Below are positions 14,552-63,413 of a DNA stretch of 64,000 bases, in pieces (position 1 is the first letter of the stretch; each line of letters begins with the position of its first letter). The stretch is from a virus: IMG/VR virus record IMGVR_UViG_3300020036_002522; one strand, 5' to 3'. The notes under the pieces are model-generated. The model was given only the letters and a program-made list of their open reading frames with translations. It did not search any database and was not told the origin of the DNA. The translations under genes were made by a program, and so were the position numbers.

Positions 14552-14742
14552 AGAAATACCCTTGGCCGCAGACGCAGCCCGGGGAAAGTTTCTTTGTGCC
14601 GGCGCTCGACACGGACAAGGCGGTGCTGGAGGGGCGGCAAGCTGCCGCGCACTACGATGTGCGCGGCTACTCCTACAAGGTGTGCGTCTACAAAGGCATA
14701 CTGGGCGTCATGTTCAAACGTCGATCGCGTCAAGCTCTTTGA
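14521..14742 (+). CDS. hypothetical protein (73 aa)
   Basis: ORF track; overlaps the end of the primase gene and converges on the giant ORF. Weak support. Confidence 0.3.
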   Translation: MSSHKPPDRLKKYPWPQTQPGESFFVPALDTDKAVLEGRQAAAHYDVRGYSYKVCVYKGILGVMFKRRSRQAL

Positions 14743-17700: not shown

Positions 17701-20700
17701 CCATCATGTCGCGAAGCCCGTAGTGGCCGGCTACCTCGTGTACGATAGTGAGCGCTACATCCCGCCCGTTATGCAGGTTGGCTGCGACCAAATAAACCGT
17801 CTTGCTGTCGGGGTCGAACAGACCGGGTACCTTGCCGGTCATGCCGTCCCGTGCCGCTTGGTCTTGCAGACGTTGGGGCAGTTGGGCTTCCGTGTCCACC
17901 ACCACGGTGTTCGGCGTGTTCGTCCACCCTTCCGTGATTCTGTTTGCAAGACGTGTAACTTCTGCCGCCTTCATACCCGTACCAGTAGTGGTAGACGTGC
18001 GATAGACGACGGGCGGTCCTGCAATATCCTCCCGACTGTCTTTTTCCAAGCGCTGCACGGCCGTACTGGCGGCAGGCAACGAGGTGTCTTTCTTGAGTGC
18101 TGCGTCGGCCGCTTTGACTGCCGCTATCGCATCCTTCAGCCGCTGCGCTGCAGCCGCTTTAGCAGGGGCGCCTGCCTTGGATTTCTGCACAGCATCGTTG
18201 GACAGCTTGGCCTCGGCGCGCTCCTTGATCGCTGCTTCCAAGTCGCGTGCCAGTTTAGCCCACACCATCTCGCTGCGCAGGGCGTTGCTCTCCCGCATGT
18301 CGTCGTTTGCCTGCGCCACGGCTTGTTCGGCAGTTACCTTGGGGTGAATCAGCTTCTCGGTAACCTTGTTACGCGTGCCGACCTTGGACTCTTTAGTGAC
18401 CGTTGTGGCTTCGCCAACGGAGCCGTCGGCCTGACGTTTCCCCGCCACAGCAGTGACGTCCCCGGAGATCATATCCCCTGCATTCAACGCGGTCTTGGTG
18501 GCCACGCCGCGCCGTACGGCCGGGCCCTGCGTGGCGGCAATGGTGGCAACGGACTGTCCGCGCTCTACCCGCGATAGGCGCTCGGTTATCGTAGTGATCT
18601 TCTCTTCCAGCGCTGCTTTCTTCTCCAGCAACCCCATACGAATGTTGGTGTCCTTGCCCCGCACCATGTCTAAGCGCTTCCAGTCCTCTTTGGCAGCGGC
18701 TATTTCTTCTTGGGCGTTGGCAATGGCCTTTGTTATGCGTGTGGGGATTAGTCCGTTAACCGCGTCGCGAGCCTTCTCTGCAGCATCCAGCTTGCGCTGG
18801 CCGTCCGCCATGCGGCGCTGTATATCAGCGCGTAACTGGGCAGCAGCTTCGGGGCTCATGTGGTTACGCTGTTTGAGCGTACTGCTCTTTTCCCGCAAGC
18901 CTTTGATACCGTTCTCCAGCCGGGTACGTTCTAGTTGCACGCGCGCTTGCACGTTGGTTATGGCCTTTTCCAAGTCTGCTTTTGGTAGCGACCTGTCAAA
19001 GAAAGAGGGCTTGTACATCTTTTCCAGCAGCGCTTCAGCTTCGGCCAGATTCTTCCGGAGCAGCTTTATCATAGGGTGCTGCATGTCTGTCTTGGCAGCA
19101 AGCCCTTCTATCTCGGCCTCAATGTTGGCCACGTCACCTTCGTAGCCGCCAAGTTCTTTACGCAACGCTGCGGGGTCGTCCGTGGTGTTGACACGTTCCT
19201 CAAACGCAGCACGCTCGGCGGCGGTCTCCGTTTGTTCTGGCCCGCTTACTACACCTTCTTTCAGTGCCTGTGCGGTGGTGGCTACCGCCGCGGGGTTGGC
19301 TTCCGCTACGGGGGCAGGCGAATTGAAGAACGCGTTCTGCGGTGTCGGAGCCGTACGCTCCATGGCTGGCAGTGACTTGACCAGTTCAATCTGGTCGCGC
19401 ATCATCTGCAAGGAATGGTCGTACACCCGCGCGCGGGCCGCAACAGCCTCGTCGTACACCTTGCGCGCGGTGCGGTACTCCTGCATAGCGTCAAGGTCCG
19501 TGTAGCCTTCTTCCTTGACGCGCGCAATGGCCGCGTTGACGATGCCTTCGGCAGCAGCAATCTCCTTGTCTGCGCGTTCCTCCAGCACCCGTTGGTCGTT
19601 TAACATTTCGCTCAACTTGGCGCGGGTATCTGCGTTGCGTACGTCGTCGGTGGCCGCGCCAAGCTCCCGCGCAGTCTTCATCACGTCTGTTTGTTTCTGC
19701 CGCTCGGCAGCCACCAGTTCCGCACGTTCGGCCCGGATGCTGTCGATGCCGGCCGCAATAGAATCGAGCTGGGCTTGTACTGCTTCACGCCGCACTTTAA
19801 GATTCGTCAACTGCTCCAGCGCCCACCCTTTGGAGTCGGGGTCGGGAGCCGTCTGGGACTCTTCCCCCATCTGCGCTTTTTCTGCCCGTGCAGCTTGCAA
19901 CCGCTCCCGGTACAGGTCGGCGGTCGCGTTCATCTGCTTGATGATGCGGTTCTGGTGTTCCAGCAGAGCGCTGCGGTGCGATGCAGACTGCGGGTTCTTC
20001 TGCAGATCGGCATTCTCTTTAAGACGTTCACGCAAGGGTTTCAGCGCATTGTCAAGCTCCGACATCAGCGTTGCTTCTTCAGCGGCAGCGGCACGTGCAC
20101 CCCCGACGAGTTCGGCCTTGTCCAGCGCCCGATTGGCGTCGATCATCTGTGTGTCGTAGACCGTGGGGGCCAGCAGCGCAGCAGCGTCAATGAGGGTGGC
20201 GGCTTCGCTCTCCATATCAACCGTAGAGGACGCGTGCCCGGCCCACAGGTCTGCAAGCGCGGCTTCGGTGCGCGCCAGATCGGCAAGCAGGTTCTCAAAA
20301 GACATGACGTCTTCTGTCAGCTCTGCGCGCGCATCGGCACGGGTGTCCCACGCCCCGCGAAGTGCGGCTTCCGTGCTGTTGTAGATTGCTTCTGTGTTCT
20401 TGACGTTGGCGGCGATACTGGCCTGCAGTGGCGACGGCTTCCCGCTGCGCAGCGCTTGCTCGTTCTCCATCACCAACTTGCGCGTCTCCTTAGCGCGGGC
20501 CACGTCAGTACGGGCCTTGGTCACGCGATCCAGCGAGGTCTTCTGGAGCTGCTCTATTTCGGAGGTCTTCCCCGCTACGGCTTTGCTCGCGGCCTTAGCC
20601 TTCGGGTCGGTGGCAGTGAAGTCGTCTATTTTCTTCAGCAGTGCCTGATACGCTTCCTGCTTCGCCGTCGCTTCCGCACGCGCGATGTCAGCCTTGATCG

Positions 20701-23700
20701 TTGCGGCGGTGGTGGTCTTGTCTCCGGCAGCGGCCTGCTTCTGCGCGGCCTTAACGGCTGCCTCACGCGCACGGGGCAGTGTGGTGGCTAGTGCCTCTTC
20801 CGAATACTGAATGTACGACGTCAAGCGCTGTACGGTGCCCATGATATTGTTTGCGGCCTTCACGCGCAGCAGCGTTTCCACCAGCGTAGCGACACGCGGG
20901 CCCATGAGCCTGCGTACGTCAGGAATCGTATTTTGGATAAGGGATTGCACTTGCAGCGCGGAGGTTGCCTTGGCGGCAGCACCGCCCATTCCATCAGCCA
21001 GTATGCGTACGTTGTTGGCGTTGCCGGAAGTGGAACGGTTCAGTACATCGGCAACTGCGGCTGTCGCCTTTTCAACTTCTGCCTCCAGATTACTGTCACC
21101 GATAAACTGCATGAACTCCGGCGACAGCTCGCCCGTAGCCTGCAGCCGTTTCATCTCCGCGTCGAGTTCCCCTTTTGCCCGTTCGAGACGCTTTGTGGCA
21201 GCAACTATTTTCTGCCCGATGCCCTGCACCTCGCCCTGCGCCGCGTCGAATTTGGCGTCTTCCGTGGCCTTGACGTCGGCGGCGTATTTCTCCATTGCTG
21301 CGGCATGCGCTTCGCTGGATTCTGCGGCGCGTTTGACGGGAAGTACGTCGCCGATAACAGCCTTGATTGGCGTGAGCGCTTCTTCCAGCGCGGCTTTGAG
21401 CCCTGCCAGCTCTCCGTTGGCCACGTCGACAGCACTCTGAGCCTTGGCCAGCCCTGCCTCTGCGTCGCGCACAAGGCGGTTCGCTGCACTACCTTCCCCA
21501 AACACGTTGTCCCAAAGGTTCAGTGTCTGCTTGTCAGCAGGCGACAGCTCCTGCATGGCGGCGGTAACTTCCGTATCGCTTGGCAGCGCACGTGTCATAC
21601 CAACCCCGCGCTCAACCCCGCGCTCAACGCGGGTGATACCCCTATCCATAACACCGGAACCCGGGGGTGCAACGCGCTCGACCGTTGACTGTGCTCCGTC
21701 TTCATCTACCGCGCCTAAGAAGCTACTCTGCTCCTGTACGGTGTCGGGGTTGGCGTTAACAGCGATGACTTCCCGGCCCAGTTCGGAAGGCCGCGGGGCG
21801 GGGCGTTTGAACGGCTGGTTGCGCGCAACTACCTCGCCGGTAGCAGGGTCGATCTCGTTAGCGCGGGCGACACCATCCGCTGTCTCGGCCGCAGGCACTC
21901 CGGTCTCCTTGACCAGCTCACCTTTGGGGCGCACCATCCGGGCGTTGGCGATCTGTTCCGGTGTGGCTTCTCCGGCAATATCGGTACTGGTCCCGGTACC
22001 AACGGTAGTAAGCTGCTTTTGCTGACGGTCGTACGGCGTCATGTTCACACCCAAACCGGAACTGCGCAGGCGCTCGCGCTCGGCCAGCAATGCGGTGGGG
22101 CGCAGCAGGTTGTCCAATTCCCGTTTCAAGACCGCTTGCCGGTCGAATGCCGTTTGGTTGCGTGCAACAACCTTGCCTGTAGCGGGGTCCACGGCGTTAG
22201 CGCGTATCACCCCGTCGGCGGTTTCGGTCTTTGCAGCTTGCAGCGCAGCGCGCGCTTGCGCGATAGCCTCCGGGTCCGGGCGCCATGCGTTGAGTTTGGC
22301 GTCAACCGCAGCGATACGTGCATTGACTTCGGCACGATTGAGTGCGCGTTCCTCGCCCTGTCCGTACCCTTGGTACGCGATCTTGTTGATGTTTTCCGCG
22401 AGGCGCATCAGTGCGTTCTGGGCGCCGATATTAGTTACCCCTACCATGTCTGGGTGCGTCGCGACTTTGCCTGCGTTTTTAAGCGCTGTATCGTAATCTT
22501 GCTGCGTGATGCCTTCAAATGCGGGGTTGGCCAGCGCCTTGGCGTAATTCTCCAACGCCCGCTGCGTTTCCGGTGGCATGTTGGGCCGATTCTGCAACTG
22601 CTCTATCTGTGCCAGCAACTGCGAAGCCTTACCGACACGCGGGTCTGCGCCGCCCGGCTCGATGTCACCGAACATTTGCTCCTGCTTCAGTGCCAACGTG
22701 TTGTTGGTTGTGCTGTCGGGCGTACGTTCAGCCGCTGTCGGGTTACGGTACAGGTCACGAGACTTGGCATCTTCCTCGGCTGCTGCGACGTCTGTCCCAA
22801 AAACCTGCCGCAGCAAATCGTTGGTTTGGTTGGGCGCGGCAGGCGGCGCTGCTGGAGGTACGGTGGTGTCCGTAGCAGCGGCTGCGGGCGGTGCGAAGGG
22901 GTTGGGCCCTGCCGTTTGGTTACCCGGGACAGCACCTTCGGCGGATGGAAACGCCTGCCGTGTAGCCTGCACCTGCGTGTGCAACCGGCCTATTTCGGGC
23001 AGTAGTTCCGCTGCCTTGGCCCCCCGCCCGCCATCAATGTGCGCGGCGTACTGTTTCTGCATTTTTGCTAACAGCGCTTCGGGGTCAGAAACAGTGGGCG
23101 GGGCCGCATCCTGCAGCTTCGTAATAGTGGGTGCGAGCCCTTTTAGCTGCTCCGCCAACGCATCCATCGTCTCCTGTGCTTTGGCAGCCCCCTCTATGTT
23201 GCCTTCTGCAGCAGCGGTCTTAGCAGCTTTTTTAGCTTCCACTAGCTGTATCTGCAGCGTATCGCGCTGTCCTGTCAATGCGGCCAGCCCTTGTGCCTCC
23301 AGCGCTTCTTTTTCTTCCTTGGCTTTTAGCGCATCCGCAGCGGCGGTTTCCGCAGCACGCTTCTTCAGCAACGGGGCGACCTCTTCGTACTGCTCCTGCA
23401 GTGGGCGCAAGGACGTCTCGAATGCGTTGTACTCCTTCCATGCCTGCGCGTGTTCGATCTTCTCCGCGAGCGTGGCATCTTTCTTCCGTTTGCCCGGATT
23501 CATCGCCTCAAGCTGCGCGTTGGCTTCTGCCATTTGCTTCGCGATACCTTCGGCATACGCCGGGTCAGCGAGCTTCGTCAGTTTCGACTGCGTTTCTGCC
23601 TCAAGCGCAACCTTCTGCTCCTCGGCAACACGCTTGCGCCCCAACGCCTCGCCTTGGGAAATCTCACGCCCACGGTCGGAGTAATGACCAACGGGACTCA

Positions 23701-24559
23701 TCGCCCCGCCCAAGACCGCACCACCAATAAAGTTGTCCACGTACTCAGCGCGGGCCTTTTCGTCCGTGATACTGAGCCCTGCCTGCGCGCGCTCGAACAC
23801 CTGCTGCGCGGCTTCCGTAATCCCTTCAGTCCCCATTGCGCGGCCCGTGGCCTTCAGGTAATCCGCAGCAATAGCTTTCAAGGACTGTTGGGCCATTGCC
23901 TTGGCCGTCTCTTCCGTAACCTCTTTACCGACGGAGCCGAGTAGCCGCCCTATACCGGGTAATAGTTTCATGGACAGCGTATCCAACGCTGCCTGCGGGA
24001 TGGCCGACAAAGCGGCTTTGCCAAGTCCCAAGTCTTCGTACTTGGTGCCTTCCTCCATCTGCCGTCCAAGATTGGAGCCGGTGAACTGGCCTACGCCAAT
24101 ACCGAAGCCCCCGGCAAGACCGGCAATACCTGCCGCACCCGCAAGCGCTGGAGCAGCGGCAGCGGCCCCTGTAGCAACCGCACCGGCTGCCAGAGGACCG
24201 ATCATGTACGCCGCACTGCCCCCGGCAGTCTCTTTGAACTTGTTCCAGAAATCGTCCGTCCAGCCACCCTTGGTAGGCGTGAAACCTGCTTCTGATTCGG
24301 CCTTCTTCTTGGCGTAAATGCTCTTGGCCTCCTCGTCATCGAGCAAACCCATCTTTCCGCGGGTCAGCGCGAACTGGCCTTGCAGGTCTTTGAGCCCGGC
24401 ACCGAACGCAGCGCCGAACCCGGACGTGTCGCCGGTGGGAGCGGGCGGTCCTAAGTCGGGTCTGCGCGCCAGTATCTGCTTTTTTGCTTCTTCGGGAGAC
24501 AGCTCATCGGGGATGTTATCTACCGAAGTGCCGTCTGGGAGCTGTATCGAGTAAGGCAC
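14714..24559 (-). CDS. giant virion-associated protein (3281 aa) with zincin HExxH motif; polyvalent ejected-protein candidate
   Basis: Uninterrupted 9.8-kb ORF with GTG start 5 nt after AGGGGA. N-terminal Gly/Ala-rich hydrophobic segment, more than 1500 aa of Ala/Glu/Lys/Gln-rich coiled coil, LTIVHEVAGHYGLRDMMGDAY, and a roughly 1000-aa C-terminal globular region. Last gene of the late block. Confidence 0.9.
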   Translation of the reverse strand: MPYSIQLPDGTSVDNIPDELSPEEAKKQILARRPDLGPPAPTGDTSGFGAAFGAGLKDLQGQFALTRGKMGLLDDEEAKSIYAKKKAESEAGFTPTKGGWTDDFWNKFKETAGGSAAYMIGPLAAGAVATGAAAAAPALAGAAGIAGLAGGFGIGVGQFTGSNLGRQMEEGTKYEDLGLGKAALSAIPQAALDTLSMKLLPGIGRLLGSVGKEVTEETAKAMAQQSLKAIAADYLKATGRAMGTEGITEAAQQVFERAQAGLSITDEKARAEYVDNFIGGAVLGGAMSPVGHYSDRGREISQGEALGRKRVAEEQKVALEAETQSKLTKLADPAYAEGIAKQMAEANAQLEAMNPGKRKKDATLAEKIEHAQAWKEYNAFETSLRPLQEQYEEVAPLLKKRAAETAAADALKAKEEKEALEAQGLAALTGQRDTLQIQLVEAKKAAKTAAAEGNIEGAAKAQETMDALAEQLKGLAPTITKLQDAAPPTVSDPEALLAKMQKQYAAHIDGGRGAKAAELLPEIGRLHTQVQATRQAFPSAEGAVPGNQTAGPNPFAPPAAAATDTTVPPAAPPAAPNQTNDLLRQVFGTDVAAAEEDAKSRDLYRNPTAAERTPDSTTNNTLALKQEQMFGDIEPGGADPRVGKASQLLAQIEQLQNRPNMPPETQRALENYAKALANPAFEGITQQDYDTALKNAGKVATHPDMVGVTNIGAQNALMRLAENINKIAYQGYGQGEERALNRAEVNARIAAVDAKLNAWRPDPEAIAQARAALQAAKTETADGVIRANAVDPATGKVVARNQTAFDRQAVLKRELDNLLRPTALLAERERLRSSGLGVNMTPYDRQQKQLTTVGTGTSTDIAGEATPEQIANARMVRPKGELVKETGVPAAETADGVARANEIDPATGEVVARNQPFKRPAPRPSELGREVIAVNANPDTVQEQSSFLGAVDEDGAQSTVERVAPPGSGVMDRGITRVERGVERGVGMTRALPSDTEVTAAMQELSPADKQTLNLWDNVFGEGSAANRLVRDAEAGLAKAQSAVDVANGELAGLKAALEEALTPIKAVIGDVLPVKRAAESSEAHAAAMEKYAADVKATEDAKFDAAQGEVQGIGQKIVAATKRLERAKGELDAEMKRLQATGELSPEFMQFIGDSNLEAEVEKATAAVADVLNRSTSGNANNVRILADGMGGAAAKATSALQVQSLIQNTIPDVRRLMGPRVATLVETLLRVKAANNIMGTVQRLTSYIQYSEEALATTLPRAREAAVKAAQKQAAAGDKTTTAATIKADIARAEATAKQEAYQALLKKIDDFTATDPKAKAASKAVAGKTSEIEQLQKTSLDRVTKARTDVARAKETRKLVMENEQALRSGKPSPLQASIAANVKNTEAIYNSTEAALRGAWDTRADARAELTEDVMSFENLLADLARTEAALADLWAGHASSTVDMESEAATLIDAAALLAPTVYDTQMIDANRALDKAELVGGARAAAAEEATLMSELDNALKPLRERLKENADLQKNPQSASHRSALLEHQNRIIKQMNATADLYRERLQAARAEKAQMGEESQTAPDPDSKGWALEQLTNLKVRREAVQAQLDSIAAGIDSIRAERAELVAAERQKQTDVMKTARELGAATDDVRNADTRAKLSEMLNDQRVLEERADKEIAAAEGIVNAAIARVKEEGYTDLDAMQEYRTARKVYDEAVAARARVYDHSLQMMRDQIELVKSLPAMERTAPTPQNAFFNSPAPVAEANPAAVATTAQALKEGVVSGPEQTETAAERAAFEERVNTTDDPAALRKELGGYEGDVANIEAEIEGLAAKTDMQHPMIKLLRKNLAEAEALLEKMYKPSFFDRSLPKADLEKAITNVQARVQLERTRLENGIKGLREKSSTLKQRNHMSPEAAAQLRADIQRRMADGQRKLDAAEKARDAVNGLIPTRITKAIANAQEEIAAAKEDWKRLDMVRGKDTNIRMGLLEKKAALEEKITTITERLSRVERGQSVATIAATQGPAVRRGVATKTALNAGDMISGDVTAVAGKRQADGSVGEATTVTKESKVGTRNKVTEKLIHPKVTAEQAVAQANDDMRESNALRSEMVWAKLARDLEAAIKERAEAKLSNDAVQKSKAGAPAKAAAAQRLKDAIAAVKAADAALKKDTSLPAASTAVQRLEKDSREDIAGPPVVYRTSTTTGTGMKAAEVTRLANRITEGWTNTPNTVVVDTEAQLPQRLQDQAARDGMTGKVPGLFDPDSKTVYLVAANLHNGRDVALTIVHEVAGHYGLRDMMGDAYTDTMNRLYEGNASVAQAADKLMAADPRLSKEIAVEETLADMSETTPGKEGVSAALSRVFYAVKQWLWKKLGLKGVTDGEVRQIVANARRHVKRGEARGDSAGGEAVYRTAAPDYGRLAGTPITKVGNVVPPDSRTTMQRVLDSISEAWNTGVVDMHAPVKNAMELAKGAGVDGKLVEQALHSLVRTGYSSSLVSQFMTNGGPETVRDSKGLISQRAGGAPSAMEVLAAAEGIPGGNSAAKFELATSYRLAKRGLRVGANKISFNTTPAQLTAVLQQVNADPELKAALNNFNNLYDKYNEALVTWAMESGAITPDLASEMLRHKDYVPMYRNNGGILQIAFGDSQWHRLGDIANTPFMHKLKGGDEAIMPINESIMYNTKLLTDMALVNMAKRNIAYVLQAAGKGKAANGKNKMSVIAGIPPAGRQYLKWKQTPLGSSDRGDRFLEIDTENTALAGIPTDMLAQSIEGHHATMPAYLKWSSYLNDLLRAGVTRVPAYTLRQLIKDPSSIASTSGLEANPLTAVARAFKEYGKGMANRNADIDDMNRRALVQSNILTGDFDDFIKLTHMLADGANPSKTRQFLNLLDKSAHMADAATRVQVYNDSIKRGLSEVEAERRVMESMNFHKRGAWATIQHANRLLPFFNAGIQAINVSIKALQGKMPFEEELKVRQTYLNNMMMLAIGGVAYATMMGDNDEYAKLKPSDKFGFLHIPLPGTDTLLKLPYTYAEGGGMAIAMGQALVEGFKDNAEANQLLKALFMYGVRALPNQGNLPIPQGLKQAIGVSLNSNMDTWKPIPIVSRSLSSLTPEKQFDANTPEAFKLLGEATGTSPKKLAWFVDQVMGGIVSVVMGTLDAVNPMMGGVAQAEKRLDQVPFIKSLFQNPTTSAASEMAFARASEATVAHQTLGNMRNRGASAEEIKDFIDSHIKDLRAQPLAGKFVQKLGAINTAMERLRNADMPATEKTQRIRELEKVRNEIAETVEQAFKELDAIDV

Positions 24560-43609: not shown

Positions 43610-43698
43610 TGGTGGAAGTGATAGGAATCGAACCTATTCACCCTTTACGAGAACGGGGTTACAGCCCGCTGCGCCTCTCCAAACTGCGCCGCACTTCC
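43610..43698 (-). tRNA. tRNA-Tyr (anticodon GTA), class II with long variable arm, CCA encoded
   Basis: Folded by hand from the reverse complement: acceptor GGAAGTG/CACTTCC, D stem GCGC/GCGC, anticodon stem GCGGG/CCCGT with loop CTGTAAC, variable arm TCTCGTAAAGGGTGA, T arm ATAGG-TTCGATT-CCTAT, ACCA. Confidence 0.85.
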
Positions 43699-43716: not shown

Positions 43717-43794
43717 TGGTCTGTGCGGCTGGATTCGAACCAGCGACCCCGCGCTTCCAAAGCGCGAACTCTGACCAAACTGAGCTACGCACAG
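43717..43794 (-). tRNA. tRNA-Pro (anticodon TGG), CCA encoded
   Basis: Folded by hand: acceptor CTGTGCG/CGCACAG, D arm GCTC-AGTTTGGTCA-GAGT, anticodon stem CGCGC/GCGCG with loop TTTGGAA, T arm GCTGG-TTCGAAT-CCAGC, ACCA. Confidence 0.9.
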
Positions 43795-54995: not shown

Positions 54996-55295
54996 ATGTC
55001 AAAAGCAAACTACAACTACACCGTCACCCGCGCTGCTCGTATGGCCCTGGCCCTCAAGCGCGAATGGACTCGTGAGCACTTCCACATGGCAGCGCACGAC
55101 CTCGGACAACTGACCACTCATGCAGACATTTTGTCTGCACCTGTCGTTACGGTGGAAACGCTCCCAGACTTCGGCCCGTGGGCACGTGCATGGGTCAACG
55201 GTACAGTAAGCGTACATCCCACCTACGAGGCGATTCGAGTCATCAAGGTGCCCGGAATCCGCACGCGGCGCCTCGTTGAGCATCAGTTCCGCTAA
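54996..55295 (+). CDS. early hypothetical protein (99 aa)
   Basis: AAGGAA RBS; contains palindrome copy 3. Confidence 0.6.
   Translation: MSKANYNYTVTRAARMALALKREWTREHFHMAAHDLGQLTTHADILSAPVVTVETLPDFGPWARAWVNGTVSVHPTYEAIRVIKVPGIRTRRLVEHQFR
55121..55139. promoter_or_regulatory. 19-bp palindrome copy 3 (centre TTT)
   Basis: Read directly; in-ORF, encodes ADILSA. Confidence 0.9.
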
Positions 55296-55432
55296 TAGAA
55301 GGCATTCAAAAGTACATACGCATAAGGTATTCTTATAGCGTATGTACGCTTTCTCGTGGTTTTCATGATTTTCAATGTGCGTATGCCATTACCTTACGCC
55401 GTGCCGCGTTTGAGCGTTGATTTGTATGGCTT

Positions 55433-55500
55433 TTCTCTTTTACTTCTCTTTATTTATCTATATCTAATTAAATTAAGGTAAGAAGGAGAATAAAAGAGAA
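55433..55500. repeat. imperfect ~68-bp AT-rich inverted repeat
   Basis: TTCTCTTTTACTTCTCTT...AAGAAGGAGAATAAAAGAGAA; the outer 10 bp are perfectly complementary. Confidence 0.55.
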
Positions 55501-55651
55501 TACGTACGCTCGCCCTTCTCGCTCTCGGACTTACGTAAAGTCCTTCCCATAGATCAATGCTTGCTCTTTTTTTCTGCGAGGTAATTTATGTGAAGCTCGG
55601 GAGAGCTAGTATCCATGCGGGTTCCGCGAGGAAGGCCTCGGTTTACGTGCA

Positions 55652-55679
55652 TCGAAATCACGGAAATATCACGTATACT
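55652..55679 (+). promoter_or_regulatory. promoter candidate (TCGAAA-16-TATACT) with palindrome copy 4 at about +7 to +25
   Basis: TATACT 55674-55679; TCGAAA 55652-55657. Confidence 0.3.
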
Positions 55680-55685
55680 GTGTGA

Positions 55686-55704
55686 AGCAGACATTTTGTC
55701 TGCA
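55686..55704. promoter_or_regulatory. 19-bp palindrome copy 4 (AGCAGACA-TTT-TGTCTGCA)
   Basis: Read directly; ends 12 nt before ATG 55717, immediately 5' of AAGGAG. Confidence 0.9.
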
Positions 55705-55716
55705 CTAAGGAGTCCT

Positions 55717-56565
55717 ATGAAAGCATCTAAAACCTTCCGGCTGCTCCGTGAGAATGGACTGTCGGTTACAGAGGCAGAACGCTTGACAAAGCAGATTTGC
55801 AAGCAAAACGACGTACGCATTAAGCTGACCGCTGCGCGCGACTGGTCGCGGCTGCTGGAGCCGCTAAACGCTGACATCAAGAACAAGCAGTCCAACATGG
55901 CGCGTTGGCGTAAGGATGCACAGTGGGCGGAGAAGGGGCCGGTATATGAACCGTACCTGACCGTGCTGTTGCGTACCAAGCAAACCATCCAGCAAGCGTA
56001 CACGCTCAATCTGGACAACCTCACCATACCCGAGATCGCCGCTAAGCGGGGGCTGCCGGGCGACGGGCTGCACTGGAGCAACTGGGTGCCGCGAAGAGTG
56101 CACTCCGCATTCATGGAGGCGTTCGACGTACTGTACGCCAAGATCGAGTGTCGCGGTAAGCGTATCGTCCCGTTCAGTGCGTCGATGGAGCAGAGCGCAT
56201 CCGATGTGCGGTGGGACAAGCTCATCGCTTGGCTTGCCAAGGAGCTGTCTGCGCGTACCACGGTCACCATGGAGCACACCGGACGCTACGACGGTGACGC
56301 CATCCTCATAGACACGCTCAACGAAGCGCTAGACGTTGCCTACACTAGGGGCGTGGACGACGTGGCCCCGGTGAATTGGGTGCACTTGCTGCCGCCTGAA
56401 CGGCAGAAAGAACTGGCCGACTGGCGCGCGGCAACGCTCAACGGACTGCGCGACCCCGACAAACTACACGCAGCGACCGAAGCCCTGCACGACGCTACCG
56501 CTGCCCGCGAGAAAGAGCGCACCGAGAAGCGCCGGGCAGCGGCCGGCCGTGCGCACCACTCATAG
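55717..56565 (+). CDS. early hypothetical protein (282 aa)
   Basis: ORF 55615-56565 trimmed to ATG 55717 after CTAAGGAG. Confidence 0.65.
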   Translation: MKASKTFRLLRENGLSVTEAERLTKQICKQNDVRIKLTAARDWSRLLEPLNADIKNKQSNMARWRKDAQWAEKGPVYEPYLTVLLRTKQTIQQAYTLNLDNLTIPEIAAKRGLPGDGLHWSNWVPRRVHSAFMEAFDVLYAKIECRGKRIVPFSASMEQSASDVRWDKLIAWLAKELSARTTVTMEHTGRYDGDAILIDTLNEALDVAYTRGVDDVAPVNWVHLLPPERQKELADWRAATLNGLRDPDKLHAATEALHDATAAREKERTEKRRAAAGRAHHS

Positions 56566-56581
56566 TCCCGCACCGAACACA

Positions 56582-56600
56582 TGCAGACAAAATGTCTGCA
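56582..56600. promoter_or_regulatory. 19-bp palindrome copy 5 (centre AAA)
   Basis: Read directly; intergenic, 53 nt before ATG 56654. Confidence 0.9.
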
Positions 56601-56653
56601 TACCGAACCCCGCCGCCTGTCGGTTACAGGCAAACAACGTAAGGAGTGCCATC

Positions 56654-57001
56654 ATGGCCAAAACAAACACAACACCGCTTCCCGCAGAAGTCACCGACGC
56701 CTGCATCCGGTTTTTCAAACTGGTGGCGACACACAAGCCCGCCATCCTGAACGTACCCGATGCGGAGCCCTTCCTGCGCCTGATCAACAGCATGGATGTG
56801 CTGGACTTCAAGATACCCCTATTGACGCTCGACACCGCGCACGAGTACATCCGGGCCCGTGAGCAGCAGTTCACCGAGCGCGAGAACAAGCTGCGCGAAC
56901 GTGAGGCCGGCATCGTGCTGTGGCAGAAACAGTTGGACGCGGAGTGCAAAGCGATCTCCAAGCAGGTGCTGTCTCTCCCCAAGCTGCGGATGAAGGAGTA
57001 A
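56654..57001 (+). CDS. early hypothetical protein (115 aa, C-terminal coiled coil)
   Basis: ORF 56549-57001 trimmed to ATG 56654 after TAAGGAG. Confidence 0.6.
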   Translation: MAKTNTTPLPAEVTDACIRFFKLVATHKPAILNVPDAEPFLRLINSMDVLDFKIPLLTLDTAHEYIRAREQQFTERENKLREREAGIVLWQKQLDAECKAISKQVLSLPKLRMKE

Positions 57002-57005
57002 CACA

Positions 57006-57209
57006 ATGATCACACTCACGAAACCACAACGCAAAGCGCTCCACAAGGTGTGGCTGCGCACATGTGCCACGCTGCCAGCCCCAGCGTACCAGTCATACCG
57101 GCCCTATCGCGCTTTCCGACGCACGGTGCAGCACGGGCCCGGATGTGTCATGGTGCAGTTTGCCGGGATGTGGCTGGGCATCGAGCCCGACGGCTACACC
57201 CATAGCTGA
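57006..57209 (+). CDS. early hypothetical protein (67 aa)
   Basis: AAGGAG RBS. Confidence 0.55.
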   Translation: MITLTKPQRKALHKVWLRTCATLPAPAYQSYRPYRAFRRTVQHGPGCVMVQFAGMWLGIEPDGYTHS

Positions 57210-57211
57210 CC

Positions 57212-57526
57212 ATGCAAGGCAACGGCAACGGCGACGGCGGCTACGGCGGCTACGGCGGCTACGGCTACGGCTACGGCAACGGCAACGGCGACGGCTACGG
57301 CAACGGCAACGGCTACGGCAACGGCAACGGCTACGGCAACGGCTACGGCAACGGCTACGGCTACGGCAACGGCGACGGCAGCGGCTACGGCGACGGCGAC
57401 GGCAACGGCGGCTACGGCAACGGCAATCCCCCACGCTGCCTCACCTACGACGCACCCGTAGACCCCTTGCCAGCCCTCTTCTTGATAACGTATTTTTTGA
57501 ATCCGCCACTGGTCGGCCACCAGTAA
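57212..57526 (+). CDS. Gly/Tyr/Asn/Asp-rich low-complexity protein, paralog 1 (104 aa)
   Basis: ATG is 2 nt after the upstream stop. Shares the conserved tail NPPRCLTYDAPVDPLPALF with paralog 2, with synonymous divergence in this frame. Confidence 0.65.
   Translation: MQGNGNGDGGYGGYGGYGYGYGNGNGDGYGNGNGYGNGNGYGNGYGNGYGYGNGDGSGYGDGDGNGGYGNGNPPRCLTYDAPVDPLPALFLITYFLNPPLVGHQ
57218..57426 (+). repeat. GGCNAC hexanucleotide array (about 35 units)
   Basis: ggcaac/ggctac/ggcgac/ggcagc units read directly. The array leaves several frames open on both strands. Confidence 0.85.
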
Positions 57527-57541
57527 CTTAGGAGAACCACA

Positions 57542-57802
57542 ATGTCAAAAGTAATAAACCACAACAAACGCATCGTAGTCCTGCAAGCGGGTTGGGTGTT
57601 CATCGGCAACTACCACGCCGCAACCGATACGAAACCCGCGTACATCACCGACGCATACAACATCCGAAAGTGGGGCACAACCACAGGCCTTGGCGAAATC
57701 GCGCTCAACGGACCCACTAAAGACACCGTGCTGGACCCTTGCGGTATCGTCCTGCTTGATACGCCCGCCAACGTCCTGTTTACCATCCCTTGCGAGCAGT
57801 AG
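57542..57802 (+). CDS. early hypothetical protein (86 aa)
   Basis: AGGAGAACCACA-ATG. Confidence 0.6.
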   Translation: MSKVINHNKRIVVLQAGWVFIGNYHAATDTKPAYITDAYNIRKWGTTTGLGEIALNGPTKDTVLDPCGIVLLDTPANVLFTIPCEQ

Positions 57803-58027
57803 ATGCAAGGCGACGGCAACGGCAACGGCAACGGCTACGGCTACGGCTACGGCTACGGCGACGGCGGCTACGGCGGCTACGGCTACGGCGACGGCGACGG
57901 CAGCGGCTACGGCGACGGCAGCGGCAGCGGCAGCTACGGCAGCGGCAATCCCCCACGCTGCCTCACCTACGACGCGCCGGCGGACCCACTCCCTTCCCTT
58001 TTCGTAATTTCAGGAGCACTGACATGA
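57803..58027 (+). CDS. Gly/Tyr/Asp/Ser-rich low-complexity protein, paralog 2 (74 aa)
   Basis: ATG abuts the upstream TAG. Tail NPPRCLTYDAPADPLPSLF. Confidence 0.65.
   Translation: MQGDGNGNGNGYGYGYGYGDGGYGGYGYGDGDGSGYGDGSGSGSYGSGNPPRCLTYDAPADPLPSLFVISGALT
57809..57948 (+). repeat. GGCNAC hexanucleotide array (about 23 units)
   Basis: Read directly. Confidence 0.85.
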
Positions 58028-58221
58028 GCAAAATTTCACCACTCACGAAGCAAGAACAGTTGGCACTCGACCGGGAACGGCTGGCCATATTCGTGCGAGA
58101 GATCAAGCACTACAAAACGCGCTGGGGCCTGCAGCCCGATCGCATCGCTTTCCGAGACGCTTGGAAGGCAACCCAATTGCAGACATTTTGTCTGCATCAA
58201 CCAGAAGGAGTATCGAAATGA
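58024..58221 (+). CDS. early hypothetical protein (65 aa)
   Basis: ATG 58024 overlaps the stop of paralog 2 (ATGA). Its 3' end contains palindrome copy 6. Confidence 0.55.
   Translation: MSKISPLTKQEQLALDRERLAIFVREIKHYKTRWGLQPDRIAFRDAWKATQLQTFCLHQPEGVSK
58178..58196. promoter_or_regulatory. 19-bp palindrome copy 6 (centre TTT)
   Basis: Read directly; ends 21 nt before ATG 58218, 5' of GAAGGAG. Confidence 0.9.
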
Positions 58222-58586
58222 AAGTCAAAGTATCAACCGCGTCCGGCCCCGTGCTGGACAGGATGGTGGCGAAGCTCGTTGGGAAGTCCTATGTTAAGGG
58301 CGATACCGACTATGCGCCTGACGGCCGCATTTATCAGCGCGGCACTGCACAACCAACCGGGCCACACTACTCCACTGACTGGGCACAAGGCGGGCCGATC
58401 ATTGAGCGGGAGGGCATCTGTTTTGCCTCTATTCGAAAGGGCAGAAAGATAGCCGGGTGGCGGGCGGCATATAGAAAGGACGGCGTATTCGGATTCGACA
58501 GTTCTACCACACTGATCGCAGCGTGCAGATGCTTCGTGACATCGAAATTGGGTGATGAAGTCGAGGTGCCTGATGAACTCGCCTAA
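58218..58586 (+). CDS. DUF2591 (NinX)-like protein (122 aa)
   Basis: MKVKVSTASGPVLDRMVAKLVG...HYSTDWAQGGPIIEREGI resembles the LD-x-x-VA ... YS-x-DW-x-x-GGP-I-IE pattern of that family as remembered. Confidence 0.55.
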   Translation: MKVKVSTASGPVLDRMVAKLVGKSYVKGDTDYAPDGRIYQRGTAQPTGPHYSTDWAQGGPIIEREGICFASIRKGRKIAGWRAAYRKDGVFGFDSSTTLIAACRCFVTSKLGDEVEVPDELA

Positions 58587-58884
58587 CCCCACGCAGCCAC
58601 GCACCGCTCATATCGCCAACAACGCGACGCTATTTGTCAACCGCAAGGGCCAGATCACACTGGACCCACGCATCGTGTACCGGGAAGGGGCGCCGGTGAT
58701 CGAGGTACGCACGCGCTACACCCACGGGGTGGCATCGCAGGGGCCCTTCTACTACATCACGACTACCTACCCGTTGACGGTCATACCCACCACACCCAAG
58801 GATCGCAAGGAGTTGCTACGCAACATGGCCACGCTCCACGCTATGACCTTGGGACACCCACACAAACTAAGGGGAAAGCTATGA
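58573..58884 (+). CDS. early hypothetical protein (103 aa)
   Basis: ORF 58552-58884 trimmed to ATG 58573 after GAGGTG. Confidence 0.5.
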   Translation: MNSPNPTQPRTAHIANNATLFVNRKGQITLDPRIVYREGAPVIEVRTRYTHGVASQGPFYYITTTYPLTVIPTTPKDRKELLRNMATLHAMTLGHPHKLRGKL

Positions 58885-59546
58885 CAACCGACGTCGAAGA
58901 AAAGACCGTGTTCAAGTTCACCGAACTAAGCCAACGCGCAAAAGAGAGCGCCATCGGCCGCTACGCCATGCCTGGCTACGACTGGTGGGACGCCACCATC
59001 GACGACTACAAGTCCGACCCGGACGTCAAAGCCAAGGGCTACGACATCGACGAGATTTATTTCTCGGGCTTCAGCTCGCAGGGTGACGGGGCTTGCTGGA
59101 AGGGGCGTGTATTCCTGAAGCCGTGGATCACCACGCATATGGTGGCGCCCGAGGATGCTGTGAAGCGCGAGATACTGCTGGCGCTGATCGAGGAGGGTTG
59201 GATTTCATCGTCTGCCAAGATCACCACGGCGGGGCGGTACAGCCATAGCTACACGATGTCTATAGACGACATCCCGCAGTACACCGAGGACAACGACGGT
59301 GACGGGCTGCTGGCCATAGAGGGGCTGTTCAAAGATGCGCGTGTCGGAGACCTGTTCGACGCCATCGGCGGGCAGGCCGCGATCGACGCACTGGAGGCAG
59401 ACATTTTGTCTGCATGCCGGGAGCTGGCCGACACGATATACAAAGACCTTGAGGACGAGTACGACGGGTACTTTGAAGAGGATGCGTTTGCCGATACCGC
59501 CGCGGTGAACGAATGGGAGTTCGACGAGAACGGCGTTTTAATCTAG
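58881..59546 (+). CDS. acidic early protein (221 aa)
   Basis: ATGA junction. Asp/Glu-rich; ...DWWDATIDDY...IYFSGFSSQGDGACWKG... Contains palindrome copy 7. Confidence 0.65.
   Translation: MTTDVEEKTVFKFTELSQRAKESAIGRYAMPGYDWWDATIDDYKSDPDVKAKGYDIDEIYFSGFSSQGDGACWKGRVFLKPWITTHMVAPEDAVKREILLALIEEGWISSSAKITTAGRYSHSYTMSIDDIPQYTEDNDGDGLLAIEGLFKDARVGDLFDAIGGQAAIDALEADILSACRELADTIYKDLEDEYDGYFEEDAFADTAAVNEWEFDENGVLI
59396..59414. promoter_or_regulatory. 19-bp palindrome copy 7 (GGCAGACA-TTT-TGTCTGCA)
   Basis: Read directly; in-ORF, encodes ADILSA. Confidence 0.9.
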
Positions 59547-61005: not shown

Positions 61006-62142
61006 ATGACTACTATTGACATCCTGTCCCACAAGCAAATCTCCAACCTGATCAAGGCTACGGGCCACGAGCAGACCATCCTGATCGAAGGCGAGGCCGG
61101 CGTGGGCAAGACCGCTATTGCACACGAGTTCGCAACTGACCCGTTCTTCGCCAACCATCTGATCGTCAAGCCCATCGACTGCACCCAGTTGAGCGACGGT
61201 TCTGTGTGGATGCCGGACATCGACCGTGATGCAGGCGTGTCCCGAGAGTTGCCAAACGAGCGGTTCGGAGTGCATAACGCCAACCAGCGCAGCGTGCACG
61301 GTAGCGTGCCGATTGTGGTGTGCTTGGACGAGATCGCCAAGGCGCGGCAGTTCATTAAAGACGTCTTGGCACCCATCGTCTACGAGCAGCGTATCGGCCA
61401 GTACCACATGCCAGAGGGGTCGGTGGTGTTCGGCTGTACCAACCTGAGCGAAGAGGGTTTGGGCGACGCTATGCAGGCACACTTGCGTAACCGTATCACC
61501 ATCGTGCGCATGCGCAAGCCAACGCAGAAGGAGTGGGTCAACGACTTCGCCATCCCCAAGAAGCTGAGCCCTGAGTTGATCGCTGCCACGGAGATGTTCC
61601 CCCAAATCTTCGATTCCTTCCTCGACTACGAGCCGGGCGGCAAGTTCGAGGGCAAGTCCATCGGCAAGCACAACGCATGGATCGCCAACCCCAAGGACGC
61701 AGGCCAAGGGCAGGTGGTGACGCCGCGCTCGCTGCACAGCGCATCGAAGATCATCAACAACAGCAAGCGTGCCGGTACCGTAGATGATCAGACGCTGCAA
61801 GCCGCGCTCAATGGTACCGTGGGGCCAGCGTTCGGTAGCGAGCTGACATCGTTTATCCGCTTCGGGCGTGACATCCCGTCGTTCGAGCGCGTTGTCAAGG
61901 ACCCCGCTGGTTGCCCGATGCCGGAGTCCCCCGTTGCGCAAATTGTCCAGACGTTCCAGCTCATCACCCAGACCAGCAACTACGAGCAGGCCGAAGCCGT
62001 GACCGAGTACGTGGCGCGTCGCAAGGGCGAGATGCAGTCCCTGTTCATCAGCAGCATCGCCAACAGCAGCGCCATCAGCATGTTCGCGACGTCGAAAATC
62101 TTCGGAAAATTATTGGGCGAGAACCGCAAGTTCTTTAACTAA
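61006..62142 (+). CDS. MoxR/CobS-like AAA+ (AAA_5-type) ATPase
   Basis: Walker A ILIEGEAGVGKT, Walker B VVCLDEIAKA, sensor-1 FGCTNL, Arg-rich NRITIVRMRKP. Confidence 0.8.
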   Translation: MTTIDILSHKQISNLIKATGHEQTILIEGEAGVGKTAIAHEFATDPFFANHLIVKPIDCTQLSDGSVWMPDIDRDAGVSRELPNERFGVHNANQRSVHGSVPIVVCLDEIAKARQFIKDVLAPIVYEQRIGQYHMPEGSVVFGCTNLSEEGLGDAMQAHLRNRITIVRMRKPTQKEWVNDFAIPKKLSPELIAATEMFPQIFDSFLDYEPGGKFEGKSIGKHNAWIANPKDAGQGQVVTPRSLHSASKIINNSKRAGTVDDQTLQAALNGTVGPAFGSELTSFIRFGRDIPSFERVVKDPAGCPMPESPVAQIVQTFQLITQTSNYEQAEAVTEYVARRKGEMQSLFISSIANSSAISMFATSKIFGKLLGENRKFFN

Positions 62143-62153
62143 GGAGAAAACAC

Positions 62154-63413
62154 ATGGCTTGGAAAGATTTGACCCCGCGCGAGCGGATCACTGCTGCGTC
62201 GTTCGACATCATGCGCGACGACGAGTTCTGCCTTATGGGTGGGGCTACACAAATCGGCAAGGTGGAGATGGTGGGTGACGACGTGATGCCTACTGCCGGC
62301 ACCGATGGCCGCGACGTGTTCTACAACACGGACTTCGTTACGGGCTTGACGCGCAAGATGGTGCGCATGTTAGTTGCGCATGAAACACTACACAAGATGC
62401 TCATGCATTGCGTGGAGTACACGTCCATTGTCGAGAAACACCCTGACGCGTCCAACATGGCGATGGATCACGTGGTCAACCTGATGATCGAGGACTTGGA
62501 CGCCGGGCGCGGGTTCATCGAATGGATTGTGGAGCCACCACCACTCATGGATGCCAAGTACCGTGGCATGTCGTTCCTCGAAGTTCTGCAGGACCTGTTG
62601 AAGAACCCCCCACCGCAGCAGCCGCAGAACGGTAGGCCGCAGGCCGGTGCAGGTAAACCCGGACAGCCCGGCGGTACCTTGGATCAGCACATCCCGGGCA
62701 AGAAGCAGGGTATGCCGGGTGCAGACAAAATGTCTGCAGAGGAGGTCGACAAACTCAAGCAGGATATGCAGGACGCCAATGCCCAAGGCCAGATCGTGCG
62801 CGAGAAGATGCTGGCCAAGAAGCGCGGTGCAGCCGGTAGCGGCGGGCGTGTCGGTGGGTTCCAAGAGCGGCGCACGGATTGGAAAGGACCGTTGCGCCGG
62901 TTCATACAGGACTTGGCCGAGGGTGACGAGATGTCCCGATTCAGCCCGCCCAACAAGCGCTTGCAACCGCTTGGGATTCTCCTGCCATCACACTACAGTG
63001 AGGCAGTGGGCGAGATCATCATAGCCTGCGACACATCAGGCTCCATGACCGGGGTGTACCCCACGGTGTTCGGTGAGGTGGCGCGCATCTGCCAGCAAGT
63101 CAAGCCGGCCAAGGTGCGGATGATCTGGTGGGATACCAAGATCGCGGGCGAGCAGACGTTCACTGCGCGCGACTACGACAAGATCGCCAAGCAGCTGAAA
63201 CCTGCCGGGGGTGGGGGCACCACGGTGTCGTGTGTAGCGGAGCACATCAAGGCCAAGAAGATCAAGGCCCGGTGCATCATCATGCTGACCGACGGGTATA
63301 TCGAGCACCAGTACAGCATGGCGCCCATCCCGCATCTATGGGGTATCGTCGACAACACCGGCTTCAAGCCGCTCAAGGGCAAGAAGATCGACATCCAGTC
63401 GGTGGGGCTATGA
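62154..63413 (+). CDS. VWA-domain protein with N-terminal HExxH putative metallopeptidase domain (DUF2201-like)
   Basis: LVAHETLHKMLMH; MIDAS IIACDTSGSM with downstream IIMLTDG. Gly/Pro/Gln-rich linker carries palindrome copy 9. Confidence 0.75.
   Translation: MAWKDLTPRERITAASFDIMRDDEFCLMGGATQIGKVEMVGDDVMPTAGTDGRDVFYNTDFVTGLTRKMVRMLVAHETLHKMLMHCVEYTSIVEKHPDASNMAMDHVVNLMIEDLDAGRGFIEWIVEPPPLMDAKYRGMSFLEVLQDLLKNPPPQQPQNGRPQAGAGKPGQPGGTLDQHIPGKKQGMPGADKMSAEEVDKLKQDMQDANAQGQIVREKMLAKKRGAAGSGGRVGGFQERRTDWKGPLRRFIQDLAEGDEMSRFSPPNKRLQPLGILLPSHYSEAVGEIIIACDTSGSMTGVYPTVFGEVARICQQVKPAKVRMIWWDTKIAGEQTFTARDYDKIAKQLKPAGGGGTTVSCVAEHIKAKKIKARCIIMLTDGYIEHQYSMAPIPHLWGIVDNTGFKPLKGKKIDIQSVGL
62720..62738. promoter_or_regulatory. 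19-bp palindrome copy 9 (centre AAA)
   Basis: Read directly; in-ORF, encodes ADKMSA. Confidence 0.9.

Follow-up and report, generated by a model that had tools for sequence, protein, structure and literature searches.

A widespread phage module that pairs a DUF6948-type small barrel protein with acidic Gly-X repeat proteins

Two small open reading frames (ORFs) of the virus record IMGVR_UViG_3300020036_002522 (IMG/VR; 64,000 nucleotides, denoted here the window) encode low-complexity proteins rich in glycine and tyrosine. These proteins, which we denote ORF A and ORF B, were found to belong, together with the gene located between them, to one widespread two-gene module in which a DUF6948-type barrel protein (the partner) shows near-obligate pairing with one or more (Gly-X)n proteins (the arms). 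The arm family was defined as small ORFs that contain at least 8 consecutive Gly-X dipeptides, with X mainly Tyr, Asp, Asn, or Ser, and lie beside a DUF6948-type gene on the same strand; ORF A and ORF B fall within this definition by composition and by their adjoining partner gene. An earlier note on the window, made from the nucleotide sequence alone, had described the two ORFs and their common C-terminal tail. That observation is confirmed here, and its interpretation is partly supported. The module in the window consists of the following features.

57212-57526, + strand: ORF A, a 104-amino acid (aa) acidic (Gly-X)n protein with a C-terminal tail
About 57218-57421, + strand: repeat array of ORF A, made of GGC-NAC hexamers
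57422-57481, + strand: tail core of ORF A, GNPPRCLTYDAPVDPLPALF
57542-57802, + strand: partner gene, encoding an 86-aa predicted Sm-like small beta-barrel from a DUF6948-related branch
57803-58027, + strand: ORF B, a 74-aa (Gly-X)n protein with a tail as in ORF A
57944-58003, + strand: tail core of ORF B
57421-57453, identical to 57943-57975, + strand: 33-nucleotide exact identity, the longest between the paralogs, encoding (G)NPPRCLTYDA

Pairing of the barrel and repeat genes

About 400 relatives of the partner were identified in IMG/VR, and pairing was counted in 80 of these loci. A same-strand segment of at least 8 Gly-X dipeptides is located within 600 nucleotides of the partner in 72 of the 80 (65 downstream and 15 upstream), compared to a background of 6 such segments in 361 kb of far-flanking IMG/VR sequence. 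Among contigs of bacterial genomes and metagenome-assembled genomes, 42 of 56 partner loci carry a same-strand arm segment within 900 nucleotides, compared to none in 78 kb of far flank, and several of the negative loci end just past the partner gene. This second set includes isolate genomes of Nocardia and Glaciihabitans, and among isolate genomes the module is present in prophage-like loci.

In cultured or complete phages, a tblastn search with the partner yielded matches in Rheinheimera phage Barba (gp018) and Myoviridae sp. ctOK67. In both, the gene next to the partner homolog is a (Gly-Tyr/Asn/Asp)n ORF, gp017 in Barba and a protein annotated as “lamprin” in ctOK67. The partner-arm layout was found again in the metagenomic loci L010 and L011, the latter containing three tandem arms, each with its own conserved head and tail. 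The search that started from the repeat side gave two matches, loci L001 and L002, and both contain a canonical DUF6948 gene among the arm genes. As in L001 and L002, the canonical DUF6948 genes of Ralstonia phage NK-7 and of the Pectobacterium phage Ymer group are followed by (Gly-X)n ORFs, one of which, in this set of phages, is annotated as “fibroin heavy chain-like protein.” The two parts also occur in one chain: a Pfam scan identified protein P0005 as a (GX)n-DUF6948 fusion, and protein P0057 has a precomputed match to PF22253 (DUF6948). The module is thus present in cultured phages of Rheinheimera, Ralstonia, Pectobacterium, Dickeya, and Vibrio. Clustering of the neighboring genes in 81 loci revealed no third conserved gene near the module.

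Fold and family of the partner

The partner belongs to a separate branch with the signature IRxWGTTxGLGE, whereas the canonical DUF6948 genes read here carry RR[IL]W[RY]W. Among 77 partner homologs, one (P0103, E-value 4e-15) carries PF22253. The partner itself showed no Pfam match at E ≤ 1, whether to DUF6948, LSM, or Hfq, and neither did its ortholog in locus L003; the Pfam gathering score for DUF6948 is 27 bits.

AlphaFold2 (AF2) modeling of the partner from a 46-sequence alignment predicted five strands and one helix, with a predicted local distance difference test score (pLDDT) of 89.3. The top 50 Foldseek matches of this model in the PDB are all Sm, LSm, or SmAP proteins, with E-values from 6e-4 and template modeling (TM) scores of 0.50-0.61; among the top matches is 3by7, an “Sm/LSm-like” protein from a marine metagenome (root mean square deviation [rmsd] 2.8). 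In BFVD, the best match is the Barba homolog (TM 0.84), and superposition with the models of DUF6948 proteins (TM 0.78 with rmsd 1.8 and 32% identity, TM 0.72, and TM 0.70) indicates that the partner has the same fold as these proteins. Pfam gives no function for DUF6948, and no paper mentioning the domain was found in the literature searched.

Composition and coding frame of the repeat proteins

ORF A and ORF B are located at the coordinates given in the earlier note, start with MQGNGNG and MQGDGNG, respectively, and continue with repeat parts of 71 and 48 residues (about 70 and 50 in the original estimate), 50-52% of which are Gly. Every second residue of the repeats is Gly, with Tyr, Asn, Asp, or Ser in between and few GG irregularities, and GGC, AAC, TAC, GAC, and AGC are nearly the only codons used. 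Tandem Repeats Finder detected period-6 arrays at 57214-57426 (36.7 copies) and 57805-57932 (21.5 copies). A DNA period of 6 nucleotides corresponds to 2 residues, that is, neither to the RTX nonapeptide (GGxGxDxUx) nor to the collagen Gly-X-Y triplet. Family-wide, across 5397 repeat residues, X is Tyr in 34%, Asp in 29%, and Asn in 19% of the cases, and the three residues jointly account for 83%. Both proteins of the window are acidic, with an isoelectric point (pI) of 4.05 and a charge of about -6.4. The Tyr counts of 13 and 9 reported previously are too low as totals, which are 15 for ORF A and 10 for ORF B, and hold as numbers of [GS]Y[GS] sites (13 in 71 residues and 9 in 48 residues). 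The C-terminal end of both proteins is GNPPRCLTYDAP(V/A)DPLP(A/S)LF, the common tail, followed by 7-14 further residues. All Pfam and PHROG matches of ORF A and ORF B (TrAA12, keratin head, phrog_20392/18306) were sub-threshold and compositional.

The frame in which these repeats are read can be deduced from the tail and from diverged copies. Past the identical stretch, in tail codons 10-19, the two paralogs differ by 6 synonymous and 2 conservative changes; over the same ten codons, copy A contains a stop in sense frame 2, and the copies diverge in sense frame 3. Pairwise dN/dS values for the tail (20 codons, five distinct sequences) range from 0.02 to 0.29, and judging from these codon comparisons, the tail is under strong purifying selection. 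Degenerate copies in locus L001 retain Gly at alternate positions with GGT, GGA, and GGG codons, and 17% of the Gly codons in the family are other than GGC. Because of the low dN/dS of the tail, the stops and divergence in the other frames, and the synonymous variation of the Gly codons, the Gly/Tyr frame is, on the sequence evidence, the coding frame. The paralogy of the two ORFs and the selection on this frame had been proposed at the outset, and both proposals stand. Antisense translation as (Val-Ala)n would place the variable base at silent positions, but this candidate was rejected, as several copies contain stops in that frame and none offers a start codon.

The exact identity between the paralogs is one base longer than the 32 nucleotides originally noticed. 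Its codons are unchanged in locus L003, although locus L006 contains synonymous differences (TGT, CTA); therefore, the 33-nucleotide stretch seems to fit preferred codons or gene conversion, not a nucleotide-level element. No Rfam family matched at the locus, RNA folding around the ORF ends was no better than that of shuffled sequences, and no terminator-like sites were found between the module genes. A hairpin, ACTGGT-CGGCC-ACCAGT (57508-57524), lies within the last codons of ORF A, with a folding energy no more favorable than that of shuffled sequences; its counterpart in L003, CAGGT-CGGCC-ACCTG, differs by one compensatory change but is located 3' of the stop codon of the arm.

The arrays leave all three sense frames and the antisense frames open, and long spurious ORFs overlie them at 57064-57531 (+), 57194-57520 (-), 57690-58007 (+), and 57790-58221 (+). 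These ORFs are Arg/Leu/Gln-rich, Ala/Val-rich, or Ala/Thr-rich, and gene callers could mis-annotate them.

Head and tail peptides

The tail of ORF A and ORF B is specific to one clade, with the consensus PRCL[TI]YDAPxDP[LV]PxL[FM], and is present in the relatives of the window within that clade. A word-seeded profile search of 5.8 billion clusters yielded four tail-bearing proteins, and an exhaustive HMMER search of 1.84 billion representatives retrieved only P0004, the new 52-aa protein P0153, and an unrelated repeat protein, P0154; the tail was found in no host or non-repeat protein in these searches. A degenerate DNA pattern run against IMG/VR gave no match to the tail outside the clade. 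Alignment of (Gly-X)n tails produced a wider pattern, GxGxPPxxxxYD[AS]xDx[LM]PAL followed by a hydrophobic run, of which the tail of the window proteins is a local variant. The final tail residue is Phe in four sequences, Met in P0004, P0011, and P0153, and Leu, Ile, Val, or Ala in the wider tail family.

Two layouts can be distinguished among 105 arm ORFs. In the head layout, an N-terminal peptide, approximately K(R/K)TINFE(D/E)xQ(N/H)S(Y/I), is followed by repeats that run to the end of the protein. In the tail layout, a start of 2-7 residues precedes the repeats, which are followed by a tail of 25-30 residues. Most members of the family are tail-less. Around the partners of loci L022-L024, there are four, two, and three arm genes, respectively, of the tail type (MLDN/MRSS...IGINQ).

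One locus, L094 (OFRF01002884.1), contains a 68-aa arm (2151-2357) that combines a class-I head (MGRKTINFESAHSSV) with the exact tail of the window proteins and is flanked on one side by a long-type partner, defined by its extended N-terminus, and on the other by a short-type partner of 86 aa that is identical to that of the window. By its sequence, this arm looks like the product of recombination inside the repeat. Because it joins a class-I head to the window tail, the ends of the arms appear to behave as exchangeable modules connected by the repeat.

The (Gly-Tyr/Asp/Asn)n repeat was also found fused to DUF7666 in P0010, P0036, P0038, P0043, P0047, P0051, and P0060. In P0010, the only one of these fusions whose sequence was read, the domain comes first and the repeat follows. 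Given these fusions, the repeat is a transferable module and is not bound only to DUF6948.

Variation of repeat length and copy number

The closest relatives of the window are L004 and L005 (92% and 90% nucleotide identity, respectively), followed by L003 (contig ERZ650250), a phage with about 72% identity in the structural genes, and the more distant L006 and L007. Orthologs of ORF A are 104 and 72 aa long, the shorter one (P0001) being encoded in a contig with 92% DNA identity, and those of ORF B are 74, 60 (P0002), and 48 aa long (P0075). The tails are identical within each set of orthologs, both for ORF A and for ORF B, and every difference in the nucleotide length of the repeats is a multiple of six. 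Protein searches detect in-frame alleles only; metagenome contigs were therefore also scanned at the DNA level with a degenerate tail pattern that does not depend on the repeat frame, and four further tail-bearing genes were detected, all in frame with an ATG. Thus, the repeats vary in length in frame only, also when the search is frame-blind. Neither of the corresponding outcomes named in the earlier note as refuting, a tail missing from relatives or length variation by non-multiples of 3, was observed. The number of arms varies as well: ERZ650303 contains three copies (GY-GY-partner-GY), compared to two in the window and in L003. Repeat length is thus hypervariable, and through in-frame expansion, contraction, and recombination of the hexamer array, both the length of the arms and the number of gene copies undergo rapid change.

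Extreme copy numbers were observed elsewhere. Locus L001 (IMGVR_UViG_3300049783_001343) contains at least 14 Gly-X segments across 9 kb, with His/Arg-rich variants, and locus L085 contains seven head-type arm genes in tandem; L082 is likewise among the loci with extreme copy number. In the GenBank phage set, megablast gave no match to the region or to 18 kb of the late genome arm, and tblastn gave none to ORF A, whose sequence is removed by the low-complexity filter.

Translation signals, timing, and genome setting

ORF A starts 2 nucleotides past the TGA of ORF 57006-57209, the start of ORF B abuts the TAG of the partner gene, and the TGA of ORF B overlaps the next ATG (ATGA, 58024-58027). 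The spacing of 0-2 nucleotides after a preceding small ORF had been recognized correctly, but the ORF in front of ORF B, taken then to be unrelated, is the conserved partner. Shine-Dalgarno sequences are absent for both ORF A and ORF B, and nearly all neighboring genes have (A)GGAG 7-9 nucleotides upstream. The combination of missing Shine-Dalgarno sequences with stop-start abutment or overlap points to translational coupling of the module genes. ORF A, the partner, and ORF B share one reading frame, the gaps being TAA plus 15 nucleotides (LRRTT) and a single TAG; in L003, the first arm and the partner do not share a frame.

The window represents most of a tailed-phage genome of about 64-66 kb. 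The plus-strand genome arm extends over about 54.7-64 kb and continues at 1-14.5 kb, with genes for DNA polymerase A, SNF2 helicase, DUF927, PD-(D/E)XK nuclease, MoxR-like ATPase, and DUF2201, and the minus-strand genome arm contains the structural genes. The module is located about 3 kb into the plus-strand arm; upstream of it is a divergent region of low GC content that contains a sigma-70-like site. Barba is the only carrier for which a transcriptome is available. Transcription of Barba gp017 (arm) and gp018 (partner) is highest at the first or second time point (PMC9305737, supplementary tables), and their expression cluster is the first temporal cluster, which also includes replication genes (PMC9305737). 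The repeats go unmentioned in the Barba genome paper. The description of the window proteins as early was originally inferred from position alone and fits their place at the start of the plus-strand arm; by analogy with the Barba homologs and from this position, early expression of the module in the window is a reasonable expectation.

Other features of the window are listed below.

61006-62142, + strand: MoxR-like AAA ATPase, 3 kb downstream of the module
62154-63413, + strand: DUF2201 protein (metallopeptidase-like plus VWA), 3 kb downstream of the module
58218-58586: NinX-like protein (PF10765, E-value 2e-13; phrog_4389), two genes past ORF B
43610-43698 and 43717-43794, - strand: tRNA-Tyr(GTA) and tRNA-Pro(TGG)
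14714-24559, - strand: giant ORF of 3281 aa, with LPD38 near the C-terminus as its sole Pfam match

After the arms themselves, the commonest neighbors of the partner are the MoxR-like ATPase and the DUF2201 protein, present within 3 kb in 13 of the 81 loci; in L001 and L002, this pair is located directly after the arm and DUF6948 genes. A NinX-like gene is close to the module in 6 of the 81 loci. ORF A and ORF B together contain 24 TAC codons. Tyr, Asp, Asn, and His, the main X residues, are the four amino acids of queuosine tRNAs. LPD38 is a large polyvalent protein-associated domain. An affiliation of the window with N4-like phages, considered because of the 3281-aa ORF, was rejected: Pfam detected only LPD38 in this ORF, which by this test is not an N4-type virion RNA polymerase, and the large terminase is most similar to those of Pelagibacter phages HTVC027P/HTVC023P and MinM2-type cyanophages (38-44% identity).

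Comparison with known systems

We found no description of the module in the literature searched, which covers few subscription-journal papers, and the searches made revealed no function for either the arm or the partner gene. The earlier statement that no such phage family had been described therefore holds as far as papers are concerned, but what had appeared as a pair of ORFs is part of a large uncharacterized family with a near-obligate partner gene. The arms are unannotated or misnamed, and the partner family is catalogued only as DUF6948. With DUF6948, the partner shares the fold, the homolog P0103, and the adjoining (Gly-X)n ORFs; it differs in belonging to the separate IRxWGTTxGLGE branch and in its own lack of a match to the Pfam model.

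The combination of a small Sm-type barrel with a variable low-complexity Gly repeat resembles SmD1, SmD3, LSm4, and Hfq. The eukaryotic proteins SmD1, SmD3, and LSm4 carry tails of Arg-Gly dipeptides. Hfq with Gly-rich C-terminal repeats, in Acinetobacter and Moraxella, is another analog of a barrel with a repeat, the glycine-rich tail having been described for Acinetobacter Hfq (PMC5663733). In the Sm and Hfq proteins, the repeat belongs to the same chain and is basic or neutral, whereas in the phage module it is usually a separate acidic protein rich in Tyr, Asp, and Asn. Furthermore, Sm and Hfq proteins contain the Sm1 and Sm2 motifs and bind RNA; the partner lacks the motifs, has its helix elsewhere, and belongs to a family that is not basic.

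The resemblance of the arms to FUS-type and hnRNP low-complexity domains, suggested in the earlier note, is plausible with regard to the very dense [GS]Y[GS] sites and the predicted disorder of ORF A and ORF B. However, FUS-type domains are rich in Ser, Gln, Gly, and Tyr, are nearly uncharged, and have no strict period, whereas the arms are acidic and consist of a strict Gly-X dipeptide with about 29% Asp and 19% Asn at X. Lamprin, silk fibroin, and resilin are similar to the arms in composition only, which is also the likeness behind the GenBank names “lamprin” (MW202613) and “fibroin heavy chain-like protein” (PP919442). Homology is lacking, as is any agreement in motifs or periods, and the arms are small cytoplasmic phage proteins with no apparent signal peptide in the sequences read.

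A proposed hub-and-arms model and its alternatives

We tentatively propose that disordered arms dock through their end peptides on an oligomeric barrel hub, giving rise to a multivalent assembly early in infection; this model is possible, although somewhat short of probable. The barrel protein would oligomerize into the hub, and head or tail peptides would dock the disordered arms onto it. Stop-start translational coupling would secure matched amounts of arm and partner. The many Tyr/Asn/Asp-Gly arms would then form a multivalent, self-associating assembly (a condensate, gel, or coat), which would act in the early or replication phase of infection. A broader version, in which phages of many bacterial phyla use an oligomeric Sm-like barrel hub, decorated with hypervariable arms through exchangeable head or tail peptides, to form a gel or a compartment devoid of membranes while the infection is in its early or replication phase, with hexanucleotide slippage and recombination within the repeats tuning arm length and copy number, appears unlikely at present, albeit worth considering.

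The model draws on the gene pairing and the fusions, the lack of a third conserved gene, the predicted fold of the partner and disorder of ORF A, the modular ends, and the early transcription of the Barba pair. Short terminal peptides are the sole constrained parts of the arms, and they track the partner type: head-type arms occur with long-type partners in 39 loci and tail-type arms with short partners in 14, compared to 10 and 4 loci with mixed combinations. These are raw locus counts that ignore phylogeny and depend on automatic choice of start codons. A candidate start codon lies -40 to +5 nucleotides from the partner stop in 97 of 110 pairs, a count that is biased by the choice of the nearest start.

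Several points weigh against the model of docked arms. The similarity of the partner to the Sm-like fold is moderate (TM about 0.55-0.6), its helix is located between strands 3 and 4, whereas in the Sm fold an N-terminal helix precedes a strongly bent five-stranded sheet, and the Sm sequence motifs are absent at the threshold used for the LSM and Hfq searches above. When the partner family was compared as a profile with PDB sequences, neither an Sm protein nor any other match was found. The family is not basic (median pI 6.6), so RNA binding by the partner is doubtful. Because of these misses of the hidden Markov models, the lack of Sm proteins among sequence matches, the position of the helix, and the non-basic character of the family, we describe the partner as a predicted Sm-like small barrel of the DUF6948 kind and call it neither an Sm-family member nor an RNA binder. 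AF2 modeling addressed single chains only. ORF A is predicted to be intrinsically disordered from its AF2 model, built with the orthologs (mean pLDDT 39.6, with 30-35 in the repeats and 48-60 in the tail, and no secondary structure), but low AF2 confidence for a repeat with a shallow alignment is weak proof of disorder. Finally, X is restricted to the NAY codon box, which could have arisen as a side effect of mutation or could reflect a role at the level of translation.

Among the alternatives, the best ranked is that the arms are decoys or sponges, with an acidic, aromatic, flexible chain mimicking or sinking a host factor (a basic nucleic acid-binding protein, a protease, or a defense sensor) and the barrel serving as a chaperone or an anti-aggregation cap. 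The low pI, the net charge, and the abundance of Asp and Tyr at X are compatible with such a role, as are the location of the genes among early and replication genes and the early transcription of the Barba homologs; fast change of length and copy number would suit an arms race. Nevertheless, the charge density is modest, with about one Asp per 7-10 residues, and to our knowledge, no known mimic is a period-2 Gly repeat. Moreover, the decoy explanation leaves the co-variation of heads and tails with partner type unaccounted for, and none of the present data indicates a host target. On balance, we regard it as unlikely, albeit deserving consideration.

A structural or ion-binding polymer comes next, namely, fibers or a shell formed through silk-like cross-beta structure or Ca2+-binding turns, with the partner as nucleator. 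Period-2 Gly repeats are a hallmark of silk-type beta sheets, DGDGNG-type segments read like Ca2+-binding loops, and homologs bear the GenBank labels discussed above, but those labels are compositional only. The X residues are bulky or charged, not Ala or Ser, the nonapeptide period of RTX proteins is missing, and AF2 produced no ordered model. Early transcription in Barba also speaks against a virion component. Overall, a polymer role seems distinctly unlikely.

It is still less probable that the repeat is a translation device, in which GGC and NAC codons report on or consume the tRNAs for Tyr, Asn, Asp, and His and thereby gate the coupled downstream genes. Such a role would account for repeat codons limited to GGC, NAC, and AGC, for the family-wide dominance of Tyr, Asp, and Asn at X, for the overlap of the ORF B stop with the next start, and for the phage-encoded tRNA-Tyr. 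However, the Gly period persists in diverged copies despite many other X residues and other Gly codons, conservation of heads and tails is at the protein level, and fusions to folded domains exist; exclusive NAC usage is also expected from recent slippage at the G+C content of third codon positions in this genome (about 0.75).

The two remaining functional proposals of the earlier note are both very improbable. Binding of host DnaN by LP(A/S)LF, blocking or hijacking replication, is suggested by the LPALF and LPSLF motifs near the C-termini of the window copies, and targeting of the host replisome by small phage proteins has precedent. Compared to the beta-clamp motif QL[SD]LF (or QLxLxL), however, the tail lacks the Gln, has Pro instead of Leu at position 2, and does not conserve the Phe; in the wider tail family, the hydrophobic run extends past the pentapeptide, and most arms have no tail. 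A precursor of a ribosomally synthesized and post-translationally modified peptide or microcin, with a conserved leader or follower directing modification of a Gly-rich core, would fit small ORFs that combine a conserved head or tail with a hypervariable core, and the Gly-rich composition recalls microcin B17. Yet the barrel protein is the only universal neighbor, with no modifying enzyme, protease, or exporter recurring within 3 kb in the 81 loci and none detected in Pfam and PHROG scans of the ten ORFs at 54996-59546, and the cores contain almost no Cys/Ser/Thr pattern for heterocyclization, with no signal or export features seen. Least probable of all is that the hexamer arrays do not code for protein, the ORFs arising only because the repeat contains no stops; this explanation agrees with the openness of all frames over the array, the spurious ORFs, and the lack of a Shine-Dalgarno sequence at either ATG but conflicts with low tail dN/dS in the Gly/Tyr frame only, an ATG always at the 5' edge of the array, heads and tails conserved in hundreds of loci, synonymous variation of Gly codons, the lack of an Rfam match, and the transcription of Barba gp017.

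Implications

The module is small, readily recognized, and very common, being present in hundreds of phages. It explains misleading names such as “lamprin” and “fibroin heavy chain-like protein” as well as the spurious Arg-rich and Ala/Val-rich ORFs. Even if the proposed model is wrong, the pairing turns two “hypothetical proteins” into one testable unit, for which natural variation in repeat length and number is already present across isolates. If arms indeed dock on a barrel hub, the module would represent a simple, genetically tractable case of an intrinsically disordered repeat protein used by phages.

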